The translations under genes were made by a program, and so were the position numbers. This document shows, in pieces, positions 3,448-15,920 of a DNA stretch of 15,994 nucleotides. The DNA is from Candidatus Rokuibacteriota bacterium (lineage in GTDB: Bacteria; Methylomirabilota; Methylomirabilia; Rokubacteriales; CSP1-6). The stretch lies in contig JACQWA010000004.1 in NCBI GenBank assembly GCA_016209425.1, positions 1-15,994 on the forward strand, in the 5' to 3' direction. The notes beneath the pieces are model-generated. The model saw only the letters and a program-made list of their open reading frames with translations. It was not told where the DNA came from and did no database searches. How positions within the stretch are numbered: the stretch's first letter is position 1; each line of letters begins with the position of its first letter.

Positions 3448-6400
3448 ATTCGACGAGTACGCTCCCCTGCCCGAGCAGGGTCTCCACCTTGCCAACCAGC
3501 TCGTGCGCCGGGTCCACGGACAGCTCCGTGACGCGCACCACGACCTCATGCTCCGGGAGAAGCAGATGAAGAAACAAGGGAACCCTCCCGGGATGCTCGG
3601 CGCAGAGCCGCTTGACGGACTCGAGGAGCGCCAACGCCTCGCCGCTGCCGGGAACGCGGATGCGGCAGGTCTGGGGCTCGGGTCGGGGCGCTCCGGCGAA
3701 TGGGTCTGCCGGGGGTTCGGGCTCAGGCTGGCCCTCCAGCGGGCGAATGTCCTCTGCCAGCACGACCCTCCCCTTGTCGGTTTCGTCCACCCGGCCCCTC
3801 ACCACGATGGGTTCGCGCGAGCGCAGGAGGGTTGCGGCAATTTTGAAGGGGGCGGGGAATACGGTGAGCTCCACGCTCCCGCCCATATCCTCCAGGGTCG
3901 CGAAGGCCATCCGGTCACCGCTCTTGGTCGGGATTTCCTTGAGGGCCGTGACCTGGCCGACGAGGCCGACGCGGGCACCGACCGCCTTGTGGACCAGGTC
4001 CGCGATCGGCGTCGCCCCGAGACGCTGGGTCACCGCCCCGAAGCGAGCCAGCGGGTGGCCGGACAGGTAGAAGCCCAGCACGTCCTTTTCGTAGGCGAGC
4101 CGCTGGTCTCCTTCCCACTCGGGAATCACCTCTTCCTCGGCGCGCGGGTGGTCGGGGGTCGCTCTGTCATCAGTCCCCATCACGTCGAAGAAAGACCCCT
4201 GCCCCTCCTGGCGGTCGCGCTGCCGGCGCTGGCCCGTCTCCATGGCCCGATCGAGCGTGGAGAGGAGGTGGGCGCGGGACACCCCCAGCGAGTCGAACGC
4301 CCCGGCCTTGATGAGGCTCTCGATCACCCGCCGGTTCACCAACCGGAGGTCCACGCGAGCGCAGAAGTCCGTCAGCGACTCGAACCGCCCCTTGGCCTCA
4401 CGGGTTGCCAGGATGGACTGGATGGCGGCCTCCCCCACATTCTTGATGGCGGCGAGGCCGAACCGGATGGTCTCCTTCACCACGCTGAACTGGAGGCCCG
4501 GGACGTTCACGTCGGGCGGGAGGACCTGGATCCCCATCGCCCGGCATTCCTCGATGTACGTGACGATCTTGTCGGTGTCCCCCATTTCGGAGGTAAGGAG
4601 GGCGGCCATGAACTCCACCGGGTGGTTGGCCTTGAAGTACGCGGTCTGGTAGGCGACCACCGCGTACGCCGTCCCGTGGGAATTGTGGACGACGATCCCG
4701 TTGGCGACGAAGCTCTTGGCTCCCGGCACCTCGAAGTCGTACGTGGGCTCGAAACCCTCCGCGACGAACCTCCTTGGCCTCGACCAGCCAATGGCAGGGT
4801 CGCCCAGCGCGTGCAACTCGGGGGAATCAAGCCGCTCGGCCAGGCACTTGAGCGTATCCCGGCGAATTCCCCGCTTCTTCCGTTCCTTGGCAACGAGTCG
4901 GGATGAGACCCCGAGCGCTCGACACCCAGCTTTCAGGCTCAGGGAACGCTTGAGGATCGCCTGTCGGAGCGGCTCCAGGCAGATCGCCAACGGGATCACA
5001 TCGACCGTCCCGCGTGCGAGGAGGGTCCTCATGCCGTTGTACGAAGCGGCGAGCGCCGCAAGCCCCGCCTTCCTTTTCCCGATCAGATGGGGACCCATGA
5101 GTTCCTGGAACCTTGCGTAGGTCGAGCGGGCCCCGGGGAGGCTGACGGTATCCCCGATCCGTGAATAAAGGTAGAAATGGCTGTCGTAGCCGAGGCTCCC
5201 TTCGGAGAGGGCGTAGCCAAGGAGGGCGGCTTTGTGCGGGGGAACCGCCTCGATCCCGCGGGGAAGCTGCCGTGCCACCGCTACGAAATCGGCGTCCGTC
5301 AGATCCTCGGCGTTGATCCATCCTCGCTGGGTCCAGAGGGGGTGGTCGGGAGTGCAGCGCACGCTCATGCCGTTGGCGAGCCGGAGGCGCCCAACCCGCC
5401 GGAGCCCGCTCGGTCGCACGCCGAGGGCCTTGAAGGGGCCATCCTTCGTCAGGACGAGGTCGCCGGCCCGTATCTCGATAATCGGCTTTTCCGTGCCGTC
5501 GGCCATCGCGATCTGGGTGTCGCCTGTGAGGCACTTGTTAAACCCGTAGCCCGCAAACTTCTCCATGAGGTCGAAGACCTTCTCGGCCTTCTTCTCCCCG
5601 ATGGCGCGCGCCTTCGCCCCCTCGATGAACTTGGCCCGCTGCCGCGCCATCAGCTCGCGGTCCTTCTTCCCCATGGCGCGCCGGAGAATGTCGGCCTCGC
5701 CCATGCTGAAGCCGGCCATCTCCGAGGCGATCTGCATGACGCTTTCCTGGTAGACCATGATGCCGTACGTGTCCTTGAGGTACTTCTCCATCAGCGGATG
5801 CTCGTAGGTGATCTTCGCCCGGCCGTGCCTGCGGTTGATGAACTCCGGAATGAGGTCCATGGGCCCGGGCCGGTAGAGAGACACCATCGCGATGATGTCC
5901 TCCAGGCGCTCCGGCTTGAGCTTCTTCAGCGCCTCTCGCATGCCGGCCGACTCGAGCTGGAACACGCCGAAGGTCTTGCCCTCGGACAGGAGCTGGTAGC
6001 TCTTGGGGTCGTCGAAAGGGATCGCGTCGAGGTCCACGGCCACCCCGGTGGACGCCCTCACCAGGCGCGCCGTGTTGGCGAGGACCGTGAGGGTGCGCAG
6101 CCCCAGGAAGTCCATCTTGAGGAGGCCGATCTTCTCGATGGGCCCCATGGCGTACCCGGTGACCACCTCGTTCCGCTTCGGATCCTTGTAGAGGGGGACG
6201 TGCTCGACCAGGGGCTCGTCTGAGATCACGACGCCCGCCGCGTGCTTGGAGGCGTGGCGCGTCAGTCCCTCGAGCGACTTGGCGACCTCCCACAGCTCCG
6301 CGAGCTCAGGTCGGCTCCTGATCGCCTCCGCCAGCGACGGGGATTGGGACAACGCATCATCCAGGGTGATGTTCAGCGGGAACGCGGGAACGAGCTTGGC

Positions 6401-7784: not shown

Positions 7785-8741
7785 TCAGCGCCTTCCTTCG
7801 GCGCCGGGCACGGGGAGCTGGATGAGCGGGGTGGCGTTGCCGCCCATCATGAACTGGGGCAGCTTGCCGTCCCAGCGGGCCAGGTACTGCTGCTGGATGA
7901 GGGCCGGCGTCAGCGAGGCCGCCACCTTGGCGTTGTAGGCCGCCTCGGCCTCGCCCTTGATCCGAAGCGCCTCGGCCACGCCCTTGGCCTCCTCCCGAGC
8001 CGCGTCGCCCTTGCCCTTGGCGGTGGCGGCGGCGATCTCCGCCTGGCGCTGGGCCTGGATCAGCTCGTAGCGTTTCTGCTCGGCCTTCTGCTCCTCGATC
8101 TGCTTGGCCTCGATGGCGCGCTCGTAGGAGGGATCGAAGCGGATGTTGGCCAGCGCCACTTCCTTCATCTCGATCCCGTACTTGACCAGCCACTGGGTGA
8201 GCTCTTTCTGGACGTCCGCCTTGATGGCCGGTCGTTTTTGCAAGATCTCCGCGGCATTGTGGAGCGCACTGTTCGCCTTGAGGATTTCCTGGGCGGCAGG
8301 ATCCACGATGACGTTGGAGTAGCCGACTCCCACCCGCTGGTAGACCTCCGCTGCCTTCTCGGGGAGGAGCCGGAAGTTGAGGACCATCTCCACGTGGACG
8401 GCCTGGAGGTCCTTGGACGCCGCGTCGTAGCGGGCCTGATGTCGTTTCACGCGCGTGTCCATATCGATCACGTCGTAGAGCGGGTTGACGACGTTGAGCC
8501 CTTCGGTGAGCGGGACGGGCTGGACCTGGCCGAAGAGGAGCGCCACGCCCACATGCCCCGCGGGGATGATACGGAAGGTGGAGAAGAGGAGGATCAGGGC
8601 CGGAATCACGATGCCGCCGAGGAACGCCAGGCGCGCCCCGAGCCGCCGCATCTGAGGCGGAAGGTCTTCTGCCCGGTTGAGGAGGCGCGAGATCCCCATG
8701 CCCAGCGCGAACACGATCACCGCCAAGACGAGTTTGGCCAT
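7785..8741 (-). CDS. SPFH/band-7 domain membrane protein (prohibitin/HflC-like), 318 aa
   Basis: N-terminal transmembrane segment or segments, then an SPFH core (RIIPAGHVGVALLFGQV...LNVVNPLYDVIDMDTRV...VHVEMVLNFRL), then a Glu/Ala/Lys/Gln-rich coiled coil, as in prohibitins. The start is taken at ATG 8741 (MAKLVL), preceded by GGGAGTGAGGG. An in-frame GTG at 8756 is an alternative. TGA stop lies 4 nt before the dnaE ATG. Confidence 0.85.
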   Translation of the reverse strand: MAKLVLAVIVFALGMGISRLLNRAEDLPPQMRRLGARLAFLGGIVIPALILLFSTFRIIPAGHVGVALLFGQVQPVPLTEGLNVVNPLYDVIDMDTRVKRHQARYDAASKDLQAVHVEMVLNFRLLPEKAAEVYQRVGVGYSNVIVDPAAQEILKANSALHNAAEILQKRPAIKADVQKELTQWLVKYGIEMKEVALANIRFDPSYERAIEAKQIEEQKAEQKRYELIQAQRQAEIAAATAKGKGDAAREEAKGVAEALRIKGEAEAAYNAKVAASLTPALIQQQYLARWDGKLPQFMMGGNATPLIQLPVPGAEGRR

Positions 8742-8746
8742 CGCCC

Positions 8747-10288
8747 TCACTCCCACTCGATGGTGCTCGGAGGTTTGGAAGAAATGTCGAAGACGACGCG
8801 GTTGATCCCTTTGACCTCGTTGATGATCCGGTTCGAGATCCTCCCCAGCAGCTCGTAGGGGAGCCGCGCCCAGTCCGCGGTCATCGCATCTTGACTCATG
8901 ACCGCGCGCAATGCGATCACCTGGGCGTACGTGCGGAAGTCGCCCATGACCCCGACGGTTTTGACCGGGAGGAGCACCGCGAAGGCCTGCCAGAGCTCCC
9001 GTTCCAGCCCGGCTTGCTTCACCTCTTCCTGGACGATGGCGTCGGCTTCCCGAAGCAGGTCGAGCCGTTCATCGCTCACCTCGCCCAGGATCCGGATGGC
9101 CAGTCCCGGCCCGGGGAACGGCTGGCGCCAAACGATCTCCGGCGGGAGCCTCAGGAGCTCGCCGAGCTGGCGCACCTCGTCTTTAAAGAGCTCGCGGAGC
9201 GGCTCGAGGAGCTTGAACGGCATCGTGGTCGGGAGGCCACCCACGTTGTGGTGGGTCTTGATCGTGGCCGAGGGCCCCCGGAAGGACACCGACTCGATGA
9301 CGTCGGGATAGAGGGTGCCCTGCGCGAGCCAGGGGATCTCGCCGAGCCGGCGCGCTTCCTCTTCGAACACGGCGATGAACTCGGCCCCGATGCGCTTGCG
9401 CTTCAGTTCGGGGTCGGCGACGCCGCCGAGCTGTTGGAGGAAACGTTTTGACGCGTCGACGTGCACCAGATTGATCTTGAAGTGGTCCCGGAAGGTGAGA
9501 ACCACGGCGGCGGCCTCCCCCTAGCGAAGCAATCCGTTGTCCACGAAGACGCAGGTGAGCTGGTCGCCGACCGCCCGGTGGACGAGCACCGCCACCACGG
9601 CGGAGTCAACGCCCCCGGAGAGGGCGCACAGGACGCGGTCGCTTCCCACCGGCTTCCGGATCTCCTGCACGGCCGCATCGATAAACGAGGCCATGGACCA
9701 GGTGGGATTGGCCTCGCACAGGGCCAGGAAGTTCTGGAGGATCGTCTTTCCCTGCGGGGTGTGGACCACTTCGGGATGAAAGTGGACCGCGTACAGGCGC
9801 CGGGTCGCGTCCGCCATGGCGGCCACCGGACAGTTTTCCGTGGCGCCGATCGTGACGAAGCCCTTGGGGGGTCGCAGGACGGTGTCGCCGTGGCTCATCC
9901 AGACCGTGATTCGGTTGCCGCGCTCGGGCCTCACGCCGTCGAACAGCCCCTCGCTCCCCTCCAGCCGGAGCTCGGCCGCGCCGTACTCCCGCCGCTCGGC
10001 GGGGATCACGTGACCGCCGAGGAGGTAGGCCATGGCCTGCATCCCGTAGCAGATGCCCAAGATGGGGATGCCCGCCTCGAAGAGCTTCCGCGGCGGGAGC
10101 GGGGCACCGTCCTCGTAGACGCTGGAGGGCCCGCCGGAGAGCACGATCCCCTTGTACCCGCCCCGGAGGATCTCCTCCATGGGGTGCAGGCAGGAGAAGA
10201 TCTCGGAGTACACGGAGAGCTCGCGGATGCGGCGGGCGATCAGCTGGGTGTATTGCGAGCCGAAGTCGAGGACGGCGATCTTATCCAT
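8747..10288 (-). pseudogene. guaA: GMP synthase (glutamine-hydrolysing) interrupted by a single in-frame TAG (plus-strand cta at 9521-9523). Fragments: GATase plus N-half of the ATP-PPase (10288..9524) and C-half (9505..8750, ending TIEWE)
   Basis: End-to-end colinear with E. coli GuaA (MDKIAVLDFGSQYTQL, GICYGMQ, SGGVDSAV, CVFVDNGLLR | x [21 protein letters not shown] ... KPPSTIEWE). Both pieces share one reading frame (all codon tops are congruent to 1 mod 3), so this is a point stop, not a frameshift. The TAG falls where E. coli has Leu (LLR-L-NEAEQ). Confidence 0.8.
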
Positions 10289-10387: not shown

Positions 10388-11551
10388 TCATGACTTGGGC
10401 GTTCCCAGCTTCTGGGCGCGCTGGAAGACCTTCCCTTCCGTCTTGATGGCCGGGGCGATGATGAGCTCCGTGAGCTGGAGCTCGCGAATGTTCCGGGCCC
10501 CCACCGATCCCATGCACGTCCGGACGGCACCCACGAGGTTCTGAGTGCCGTCATCGGTGAACGCGGGGCCCAGGAGAATCTGCTCCAGCGGGCCAGTCAC
10601 CCCCACGCGGATACGCGTCCCGCGCGGCAGGTTCTGGTGGGGAGTGGCCATGCCCCAGTGGTAGCCGCGGCCGGGGGCCTCCTCGGCGCGGGCGAACGCG
10701 GACCCGATCATCACGGCGTCGGCCCCCGCGGCCAGTGCCTTGCAGATGTCGCCCCCCGTGGTCATCCCGCCGTCGGTGATGATCGGGATGTAGCGACTCG
10801 TCTGCTTGTAGTGGAAATCCCGGGCCGCGGCCGAGTCCGTGGTGGCGGTCACCTGGGGCACGCCCAACCCGAGGACCTCGCGGCTCGTGCACGCGGCGCC
10901 CGGGCCGACGCCGATGAGCAAGGCGTCGACGCCGCACTGCATCAGTTCCAGGCAGGCTTCGTAGGTCACGCAGTTGCCGACGATCAGGGGGATCGAGAGG
11001 TTTTTCTTCAGCTTGGTGAAGTCGAGCGGGGTGTACTCGGTGGCGATGTGCCGGGCGGTCGTGACGGTGGACTGGACCATGAAGATGTCGGCGCCCGCCT
11101 CCTCGGCGATCTTTGCGAAGCGCTCGGCGCGCTGGGGGATGGAGGAGACCACCGCCGGACCACCGCCCTTCTTGATTTCGCTGATCCGCTTGTGGATCAG
11201 CTCTTCCTTGATGGGCTCGCCGTAGATCGACTGGATGATCCGCGTCGCCTCGTCGAGGCTGGCCGAGACGATTCGATCCAACACCTCGTCGGGCTCCTCG
11301 TACCGGGTCTGGATGCCCTCCAGGTTCAGCACCGCCAGGCCGCCGAGCCGCCCCATCTCGATGGCGAGCCGTGGCCCGACCACGCCGTCCATGGCCGCGG
11401 CAATGATCGGGATGTCGAAGCGCCGGCCGCCGAGCTCCCACGAGATGTCCACTTCGTTCGGGTTGACGGTGACCGCTCCCGGCACCAAGGCGATGTCGTC
11501 GAAGCCGTATGCGATCCTGGCTTTGCGTCCGCGGCCGATCCACATGCCCAT
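10388..11551 (-). CDS. IMP dehydrogenase-family protein lacking the CBS (Bateman) subdomain, 387 aa (GuaB3-like / CBS-less IMPDH)
   Basis: FDDIALVPG start region, IMPDH catalytic Cys loop [13 protein letters not shown], and TIM-barrel phosphate-binding region ([27 protein letters not shown]). Only about 387 aa, with no roughly 120-aa CBS pair between the first barrel elements. ATG 11551 is preceded by AAGGAGGA (9-nt spacer). It sits immediately upstream of guaA (99-nt gap). Confidence 0.85.
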
Positions 11552-11611
11552 GTTCGCGCGTCCTCCTTGGCGAGCCGACACCCCGTATATAGGAAGCCCG
11601 CTTTCGGACCC

Positions 11612-11656
11612 TACTATATTTGGGGTAGTGTACCGGTCCGGCCCCTCCCCTGTCAA
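11612..11656 (-). promoter_or_regulatory. Candidate sigma70-type promoter for the IMPDH-like/guaA operon: -35 TTGACA (11651-11656, overlapping the coaX TGA stop), 18-nt spacer, -10 TACACT (11627-11632). A second TATAGT lies at 11613-11618
   Basis: The minus-strand reading is gttcTTGACAggggaggggccggaccggTACACTaccccaaaTATAGTagg. It lies in the only AT-enriched patch of the 100-nt coaX to IMPDH-like intergenic region. Confidence 0.4.
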
Positions 11657-12429
11657 GAACCCTGGGGGTGGCTCTGCTCCCAGATCAGGCGGAGCCCTTC
11701 CAGCCTGAGGTCGGGGTTCACGTGCTGGACGGTTCGGGTGGCTTCCTGGATCAGGCCGGCGAGGCCCCCGGTGGCGATCACCTTCGGATCGCCGTCCATC
11801 TCGGCCCGAATCCGTTCGACGAGGCCGTCGACGAGCCCCGCGTAGCCGTAGACCAGGCCGGACTGGATATTGGTGGTCGTGTTGCGGCCGATGGCCTCCT
11901 TCGGGCGCACGATCTCCACCCGGTAGAGGCGCGCCGCCCTGGAGATCAGCGCCTCCGCGGCCACGGTGATCCCGGGGGCGATGGCCCCCCCGATGAACTC
12001 CCCGCGGGAGTTCACGCAGTCGAAGGTTGTCGCGGTGCCGAAGTCGATCACGATGAGCGGCGGGCCGTAGAATTCCACGGCGGCCACGGCATTGACGACG
12101 CGGTCGGATCCCACCTCGCGCGGGTTGTCCACGCGCAGGGGCATCTTCACGTTGACCCCCGGCTCCACGGTGAAGGGATGGATCCCGAAGTATTTCTCGC
12201 ACATCCACTCGAGCGTCTGCTGGACGGGCGGGACGACGTTGGAGATGGCCACGGCGGTGATCTGGCTGCGCTCGATTCCACGGCTCGCCAGGAGGGTCTG
12301 GATGAAGACGCCGTACTCGTCGGCGGTCTGCTCGCGTCGGCTCGCCAGGCGCCAGGAGACCAGCAGGCGGCGGCCGTCGAAGACCCCGAGCCCCGTGTTG
12401 GTGTTGCCGACGTCAACGACGAGGAGCAT
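11653..12429 (-). CDS. coaX: Type III pantothenate kinase, 258 aa
   Basis: MLLVVDVGNTNTGLGVF N-terminus, the acetate/sugar-kinase fold motifs (IDFGTATTFD, GGAIAPG) and C-terminal ATGGLA are typical of CoaX. The ATG overlaps the birA stop by 17 nt. TGA stop. Confidence 0.9.
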   Translation of the reverse strand: MLLVVDVGNTNTGLGVFDGRRLLVSWRLASRREQTADEYGVFIQTLLASRGIERSQITAVAISNVVPPVQQTLEWMCEKYFGIHPFTVEPGVNVKMPLRVDNPREVGSDRVVNAVAAVEFYGPPLIVIDFGTATTFDCVNSRGEFIGGAIAPGITVAAEALISRAARLYRVEIVRPKEAIGRNTTTNIQSGLVYGYAGLVDGLVERIRAEMDGDPKVIATGGLAGLIQEATRTVQHVNPDLRLEGLRLIWEQSHPQGS

Positions 12430-13174
12430 AGAAATCCCCGGCGTGGAGCCGGACGAGGGCGCCCGAATCCGTCTTCACCACCAGCGCGCCATCGTCGGCG
12501 AGGTCCACGGCGACTCCCGCGACGCCGCCATCGCCGTCGATCCGCCGGCCGAGGGTTTCCGCCCGGTGACGCCACGCCTCACGCACCGGTTGGAAGCCGT
12601 CCGCTACCCACCAGCGGTACCAGGCTTCCAGGCGCTCGAGCAGCAGTCTCAGCACCCGCGCTCGGTCGAAGGGATGCCCCGCCTCCATGGCCAGCGACGT
12701 GGCGCGGCCGCCAAGCTCCCCCGAAAAGTGCGTCTGGTTGACGTTGATGCCGATGCCGAGGATGACCACGCCTGGGGCGCCCTTCGTCAGGCAGGACTCG
12801 GCCAAGATGCCCGCCACCTTGCGACCACGGATCAGCAGATCGTTGGGCCAGGAGAGGGTCACCGGCAATTCTGACTCCCCCGCCAGGGCGTCGGCCACCG
12901 CGACCCCGGCCAGGAGCGAGATCTGAGGGAGGCGGGACGCGTCGAGAGCGGGGCGGAGAATGATCGAGATCAGGAGGGAGGCGGCCGGCTCATCCACCCA
13001 ACTCCGGCCGAGGCGCCCGCGGCCGCGGGTCTGGTGCTCCGCCCAGACGACCGTCCCCTCCGGGACGCCCTCGTCCGCCAGCCGTCGGGCCTCATTCTGG
13101 GTCGAATCGACTTCGCCCAGCCGGTGCACCGCGCGGCCGGCCCACGCCCCCCGAACGTCAGCCGCTTGCGTCAT
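12413..13174 (-). CDS. birA: Biotin-[acetyl-CoA-carboxylase] ligase, class I (no N-terminal HTH), 253 aa
   Basis: GRGRLGRSW (the GRGRxGRxW biotin-binding loop) and ILGIGINVN are canonical BirA motifs. There is no DNA-binding N-terminal domain. The ATG overlaps the valS stop by 17 nt. The birA-coaX adjacency is a common conserved pairing. Confidence 0.85.
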   Translation of the reverse strand: MTQAADVRGAWAGRAVHRLGEVDSTQNEARRLADEGVPEGTVVWAEHQTRGRGRLGRSWVDEPAASLLISIILRPALDASRLPQISLLAGVAVADALAGESELPVTLSWPNDLLIRGRKVAGILAESCLTKGAPGVVILGIGINVNQTHFSGELGGRATSLAMEAGHPFDRARVLRLLLERLEAWYRWWVADGFQPVREAWRHRAETLGRRIDGDGGVAGVAVDLADDGALVVKTDSGALVRLHAGDFYAPRR

Positions 13175-15809: not shown

Positions 15810-15920
15810 CAGCCTATTCTAGCCCCAATGCGATCGCGCCTGGCGAGGAACGAGGGGCCCGCACCTGCCGCCGCGGGTCCTGTCGCCGGGCGCTCCCGGA
15901 CTCGCGGGCTCCGTCACCCG

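Follow-up and report, generated by a model that had tools for sequence, protein, structure and literature searches.

The guaA gene of a Candidatus Rokuibacteriota bacterium is interrupted by a single in-frame TAG codon. We estimate, with a probability of about 0.85, that this lone AAG to TAG difference in an otherwise intact gene is either a sequencing or assembly artefact or a very recent null mutation; between these two, we infer roughly equal odds. The stretch of DNA analysed here (the window, 15,994 nt) had previously been interpreted from its letters alone, and that sequence-only reading listed four explanations for the stop: a sequencing or assembly error, a recent inactivating mutation, amber suppression or read-through, and a genuinely split ATP-pyrophosphatase. 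The first two fit all the evidence described below, whereas read-through and the split enzyme do not find support in it. Annotation pipelines routinely mark lone internal stops of this kind as pseudogenes or possible sequencing errors. In annotation, the locus should accordingly be recorded as a guaA gene that contains an internal stop and may be a sequencing error or a pseudogene, and not as a case of recoding or a new split enzyme.

Table 1 Features of the interrupted guaA and of neighbouring genes in the window
Feature	Positions	Strand	Basis or remark
guaA, glutamine-hydrolysing GMP synthase	8747..10288	minus	translation, Pfam, NCBIfam, 1gpm alignment
N-terminal fragment, 255 aa	9524..10288	minus	class I GATase and first 55 ATP-pyrophosphatase residues, including the P-loop
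P-loop SGGVDS, residues 224-229	9602-9619		
In-frame TAG, codon 256	9523-9521	minus	in place of Lys (AAG/AAA) of relatives; direct reading, alignment
C-terminal part, 257 codons	8750..9520	minus	remaining ATP-pyrophosphatase core and GMP_synt_C dimerisation domain
GGGGAGG, Shine-Dalgarno-like heptamer	9514..9520	minus	sequence; GGG-GAG-G(CC), Gly257-Glu258-Ala259
Spacer between GGGGAGG and GTG, 8 nt	9513-9506		
In-frame GTG, codon 262 (Val262)	9503..9505	minus	opens 252-aa ORF 9505..8747; possible fortuitous reinitiation codon
MazF/PemK-type toxin gene	30-374	plus	Pfam 3.6e-27
133-aa ORF	355-756	plus	TAA stop
accA, longest ORF, 351 aa	2494-3549	minus	
dnaE, 1449 aa	7780..3431	minus	
DnaE intein	~4682-5533		Pfam Intein_splicing, Vint, Hint at aa ~750-1033
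SPFH/Band 7 gene in the variable guaA-dnaE slot	7785-8756	minus	
606-aa ORF, GuaB3 family	10388-12208	minus	TIGR01304, 450 bits
coaX	11653-12429		

A single nonsense codon in a conserved, undecayed gene

The gene comprises 513 codons in a single frame, with an internal stop only at codon 256 and a terminal TGA, and it aligns over its whole length with E. coli GuaA (1gpm, E-value 1.5e-183), in agreement with the end-to-end colinearity described in the sequence-only reading. Its length, 1542 nt, is that of the L001 and L002 orthologues, to which it aligns without gaps. The order of the domains, namely GATase, ATP-pyrophosphatase and dimerisation domain, is the same as in the single-chain bacterial GuaA (E. 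coli 1GPM, NF000848). Pfam detects the GATase domain (6.6e-44, residues 6-188) and the start of an NAD_synthase-like PP-loop domain before the TAG and GMP_synt_C (6.3e-46) after it, and the TIGR00888 model gives 235 bits. The N-terminal domain carries the catalytic Cys, His and Glu of the class I glutamine amidotransferases within the motifs GICYGMQ (Cys80) and HFHPE (His171, Glu173), at positions that are invariant in an alignment of 38 Rokubacteria-type GuaA proteins (alignment A1), and the SGGVDS ATP-pyrophosphatase and the dimerisation domain of GuaA are likewise both represented. The two parts of the translation match the NF000848 equivalog model, the part preceding the TAG at positions 1-253 (336 bits) and the part that follows it at positions 256-512 (431 bits). 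Thus, the window gene differs from a single-chain GuaA by one nonsense codon, at residue 256, and as written it lacks the continuous reading frame of some 510-545 codons that is typical of this enzyme.

Around the break, the minus strand reads CTT CGC TAG GGG GAG GCC GCC GCC GTG GTT CTC. Both translation and alignment bear out the earlier observation of a lone in-frame TAG that is aligned to a leucine of the E. coli enzyme (LLRLNEAEQV). In the Rokubacteria-type loci, codon 256 is a lysine codon, AAG or AAA, in 10 of 10 cases (L081, L082 and the eight loci obtained by the genome scan). Lysine also prevails among the best 120 protein matches (K in 103 of 118, A in 13, Q and S in 1 each) and across 82 loci from many phyla (K in 52, A in 6, Q, R and L in 5 each, T, S, E and N in 2 each, F in 1). 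A change from AAG to TAG by one A-to-T transversion is enough to explain the stop. The sequence-only reading had suggested that orthologous guaA genes be checked for the same TAG; none of the 82 related loci carries a stop, each being represented by one HSP across the whole query without an in-frame stop codon, and the best 120 GuaA protein matches, each 511-543 aa long, are uninterrupted.

The TAG also creates a tetranucleotide that is avoided in this lineage. In the window, CTAG is about 25 times rarer than the base composition predicts (2 observed vs 48.6 expected), and it is similarly scarce in the relatives L001-L008, L081 and L082 (0-8 observed vs 28-61 expected). One of the two sites in the window is the one made by the guaA TAG (9521-9524, GC-TAG-G), and the other lies at 15819-15822. 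The appearance of a new CTAG fits a change that has not yet been acted on by selection or repair, or one that is absent from the cell.

Apart from the stop codon, the gene shows no trace of decay. With L001 and L002 used as a pair to polarise the changes on the window branch, the codon changes upstream of the TAG came to 55 synonymous and 14 non-synonymous, and those downstream of it to 60 and 11, respectively, with no indels in either part. The window protein contains 7 residues that are unseen in 57 same-length homologues, compared with a leave-one-out baseline with a median of 4 and a maximum of 23, and the sole unseen residue in an invariant column, T405S, is a mild, conservative replacement. 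Judging from these substitution patterns, both halves of the gene were under equal, strong purifying selection until very recently, and an old, decaying pseudogene is rejected on the grounds of the missing indels relative to L001 and L002, the downstream counts set against the upstream ones, and the number of unique residues, which stays within the baseline. This lack of decay is equally expected for an artefact, a very young mutation or a still-working allele. A cluster of window-specific changes near the TAG (V253L, S261A and H264L) was dismissed as a signal because Leu253 is the majority residue, Ala261 is also found among the Rokubacteria matches and position 264 is variable; moreover, three changes in 16 positions amount to only about double the rate for the whole gene.

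We propose that an A-to-T difference has converted the Lys codon AAG 256 of a constrained guaA to TAG, so that, in the gene as written, ribosomes would be predicted to stop after Arg255 and full-length GMP synthase would not be made at the normal level. One option is that the TAG does not exist in the organism: the base would have been miscalled or set wrongly in the consensus, or the assembler would have taken up a rare allele; the other is a very recent null mutation, in which case guaA might be bypassed through guanine (purine) salvage. De novo synthesis of GMP normally requires guaA, and for this reason a fixed null allele would be somewhat unexpected unless salvage exists. Elsewhere in the window, nothing points to poor sequence quality, and the error option is slightly weakened by this. 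Sequences of the same species were sought as a stand-in for reads: searches for the exact products of the two guaA fragments, of accA and of the SnoaL gene gave nothing, and in the JGI metagenomes, no match was obtained either with a 24-mer carrying N at the mutated base or in a degenerate scan for the lineage-specific peptide at the mutated codon. A literature search on premature stops in guaA yielded pathogen pseudogenes, which are not relevant here.

Among the known counterparts of this locus are the unitary pseudogenes, or 'internal stop' genes, of draft and metagenome-assembled genomes, in which an otherwise conserved housekeeping gene likewise contains a lone premature stop that is unique to one assembly. 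Unlike such pseudogenes, the window guaA displays neither further lesions nor relaxed constraint and would have to be very young if real. Should the TAG be real and fixed, the locus would be of modest interest, either as a newly arisen guanine auxotrophy in an uncultivated bacterium of soil or groundwater or as a natural fragment complementation of an N-type ATP-pyrophosphatase.

Coding origin of the restart-like sequence

Downstream of the TAG, the sequence-only reading had identified a "perfect SD-GTG restart signal". The sequence part of this claim stands: on the minus strand, the TAG is followed by GGGGAGG and, after 8 nt, by the in-frame GTG 9505, an arrangement in which a stop is closely trailed by a start that is preceded by a Shine-Dalgarno-like motif. 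A reading of this arrangement as a designed signal finds no support. The heptamer and the start codon fall on the conserved G-E-A...V residues of GuaA; in alignment A1, no variation is seen at E258 and V262 and almost none at G257 and A259. The relatives encode residues 257-259 by GGT GAG GCC, GGC GAG GCG or GGG GAA GCC, and the SD-GTG found in the window requires nothing beyond the synonymous choices GGG and GTG.

The same arrangement recurs in genes that contain no stop. Among 57 intact guaA genes in which the motif could be located, 5 (9%) have a strict GGAGG together with an in-frame ATG or GTG at the right distance in the same place, and 11 more have a 4-mer core and a start there, for a total of 16. 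The intact guaA of L045 reads AAA GGGGAGG CTCGAAAA GTG, and those of L051 and L076 are similar, with GGAGG and then GTG. Across the genes of the window (G+C content, 67%), a random codon is trailed by the strict GGAGG signal in 1.2% of cases and by the 4-mer core in 7%; the strict SD-GTG is common at this position, though rare window-wide, because the conserved peptide forces it. As judged from these coding sequences, the SD-GTG is a by-product of the conserved Gly-Glu-Ala...Val codons and not an evolved signal. The signal does not exceed the coding expectation, and the stop that it would serve occurs in none of the 82 related loci. More generally, conserved Gly-Glu codons can fully explain Shine-Dalgarno-like "restart signals" in G+C-rich genes. 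With the Shine-Dalgarno-like motif and the start codon lying within 15 nt after the TAG, some C-terminal fragment may nevertheless be made by accident. No internal promoter or terminator was detected near the break.

Possible alternatives: sense codon, two-piece enzyme and read-through

The sequence-only reading had pointed out that TGA dominates the gene ends of the window and that TAG is unused there. This is correct, with 11 TGA, 1 TAA and 0 TAG among the 12 gene ends checked, and would be expected if TAG were a sense codon in this organism, through either reassignment of the code or pyrrolysine; the residue replaced, lysine, is the parent amino acid of pyrrolysine. However, the absence of TAG stops from the window is weak evidence and carries little weight because L082, a relative as close as L081, shows none either (8 TGA, 1 TAA and 0 of 9 TAG). 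TAG ends 5 of the 13 called genes of L081, a relative with 93% identity in protein and 87% in DNA, namely guaA, dnaE, accA and two others, and the observation on the window was accordingly rejected as evidence of reassignment. The guaA genes of L003 and L007 terminate in TAG as well, and the SPFH orthologue of L002 aligns up to the last residue of the window protein and then stops with TAG exactly where the window has TGA. By the testimony of these gene ends, TAG is an ordinary working stop codon in this lineage. Moreover, instead of the several in-frame TAGs in conserved genes that accompany reassignment or the use of pyrrolysine, the window contains a lone one in the roughly 5,100 codons of its 12 genes, all other genes being intact; a one-base change from AAG to TAG requires no special explanation, and the literature search gave no paper linking Rokubacteria to pyrrolysine. 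We regard a sense TAG as extremely improbable.

With TAG taken as a genuine and fixed stop, activity could still be kept either by reinitiation at the GTG, giving a two-piece enzyme, or by read-through at the loop that contains residue 256, giving a full-length one; taken together, these possibilities appear unlikely. Under the first scenario, translation would terminate at the TAG and reinitiate at GTG 9505 via GGGGAGG, and the resulting 255-aa and 252-aa fragments would assemble non-covalently. All the elements, that is, the TAG, the Shine-Dalgarno-like motif, the 8-nt spacer and the in-frame GTG, lie within 21 nt; such a strict signal trails few codons in the window's genes; GGAGG is in use at one or more real starts of the window, among them that of guaB3, where it lies 10 nt upstream of ATG 11551; and the C-terminal half has not decayed. 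Bacterial post-termination ribosomes have been reported to scan locally and to restart at the first start codon preceded by a Shine-Dalgarno sequence (review PMC5972666). With such a start within 15 nt of its stop, the window gene resembles the termination-reinitiation of bacteria, which includes translational coupling and restarts after nonsense mutations. In the window, however, the motif and the start are dictated by conserved residues and recur in 9% of the intact genes, which provides no evidence of adaptation; the complete arrangement is found in no relative, and the recent change or artefact that we favour explains the lack of decay equally well. The sequence-only reading's notion of a genuinely split ATP-pyrophosphatase also runs against the comparative record, in which no guaA is split at any site among the 82 loci and 120 proteins. 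The structural consequences are unfavourable too. In an AlphaFold2 model of P0001 (93% identical, same length, gapless; mean pLDDT 71, higher in the N-terminal 320 residues), codon 256 falls within the ATP-pyrophosphatase core, in loop 251-257, which links strand 244-250 to helix 258-269. The Rossmann-like core would therefore be cut between this strand and this helix, with the N-terminal fragment keeping the P-loop SGGVDS and one further strand and the C-terminal fragment keeping all else, and a restart at the GTG would lose residues 256-261, including the invariant Glu258, and begin inside the helix. A likeness exists to the archaeal two-subunit GMP synthase (A, GATase; B, ATP-PPase; 2dpl, 6jp9; NF001975), in which two polypeptides likewise cover GuaA. 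The archaeal split coincides with the domain boundary, as 2dpl and 6jp9 align from residues 200-201, whereas the window break lies 56 residues inside the ATP-PPase domain. The N and C fragments match positions 2-55 and 57-310, respectively, of the TIGR00884 guaA_Cterm model, so that the sequence-only reading placed the break correctly. Furthermore, the archaeal form consists of two genes conserved across a lineage, as opposed to two parts of one mutated ORF in the window, and a split conserved in relatives was seen in 0 of the 82 loci (including ten of the Rokubacteria type) and 0 of the 120 best proteins. A reinitiated enzyme would be split in the nucleotide-binding core, at a site used by no known GMP synthase, be it solved or annotated, and we find such an enzyme hard to credit; the complete scenario of termination, restart and non-covalent assembly seems very unlikely.

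Low-level read-through, by near-cognate decoding or by a suppressor tRNA encoded elsewhere in the genome, would instead restore the full-length enzyme. Position 256 tolerates at least ten residues across the 82 loci and belongs to a lower-confidence loop between a strand and a helix, so that, going by the model, an enzyme with any inserted amino acid would probably be active; the remainder of guaA is perfectly preserved. There is, on the other side, no tRNA gene in the 16-kb window and no stimulatory RNA structure: the fold of 9560..9440 is not significant (z -0.85), and no Rfam families were detected in the window. In E. coli, a G after the stop (UAG-G) is not known to make for a notably leaky context. 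An efficient suppressor would be costly, given that TAG terminates many genes in the nearest relatives, and nothing distinguishes this TAG from any other fresh nonsense mutation. The amber suppression or read-through listed in the sequence-only reading is thus left without support, TAG being a genuine stop in the closest relatives and occurring in frame only once in the window's genes. We consider read-through at a level that would meet the GMP synthase needs of a slow-growing organism quite unlikely. An artefact or a very recent null mutation remains the preferred explanation.

Gene neighbourhood and relatives

The closest relatives of the window are metagenome-assembled genomes labelled Rokuibacteriota or Methylomirabilota, the intact GuaA proteins of which are 92-93% identical to the window protein (85-87% DNA identity). 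The gene order valS, birA, coaX, guaB3, guaA, variable gene, dnaE, accA is conserved in the relatives, with guaA always present as one 513-aa gene. In the window and L002, the slot between guaA and dnaE is occupied by an SPFH/Band 7 gene; L081 has a periplasmic binding protein gene (Peripla_BP_2; 11556-12473) in this slot, and L082 has a nucleotidyltransferase/HEPN pair (11562-12264).

The DnaE protein of the window carries an intein. This intein is absent in L081 (DnaE of 1179 aa), L003, L005 and L008; in the P0002 contig, it is larger and contains a LAGLIDADG domain (DnaE of 1600 aa), and at the intein site, the DnaE proteins of L001, L004, L006 and L007 exceed that of the window by about 130 aa. 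The longest ORF of accA shares 119 nt with the 3' end of dnaE; AccA is 317 aa long in the relatives, which suggests that the window accA starts about 34 codons downstream.

Upstream of guaA, the 606-aa ORF encodes an IMP dehydrogenase-related protein of the GuaB3 family, without the CBS pair. Its real start is probably ATG 11551, the relatives being 386 aa long, and the upstream 220 codons appear to be a spurious extension that overlaps coaX. No canonical guaB adjoins guaA. At the edge of the window, a MazF/PemK-type toxin gene is overlapped by the 133-aa ORF, which has no Pfam match; the antitoxin gene, expected upstream of the toxin gene, would fall beyond the window edge.

Although its title names an archaeon, Nitrosotalea sp., the L007 contig (DATIWG010000012.1) combines in one locus Rokubacteria-type orthologues of guaA (77% identity), dnaE, accA, valS, birA and guaB3; a wrong label or a binning error is probable for this contig or bin.
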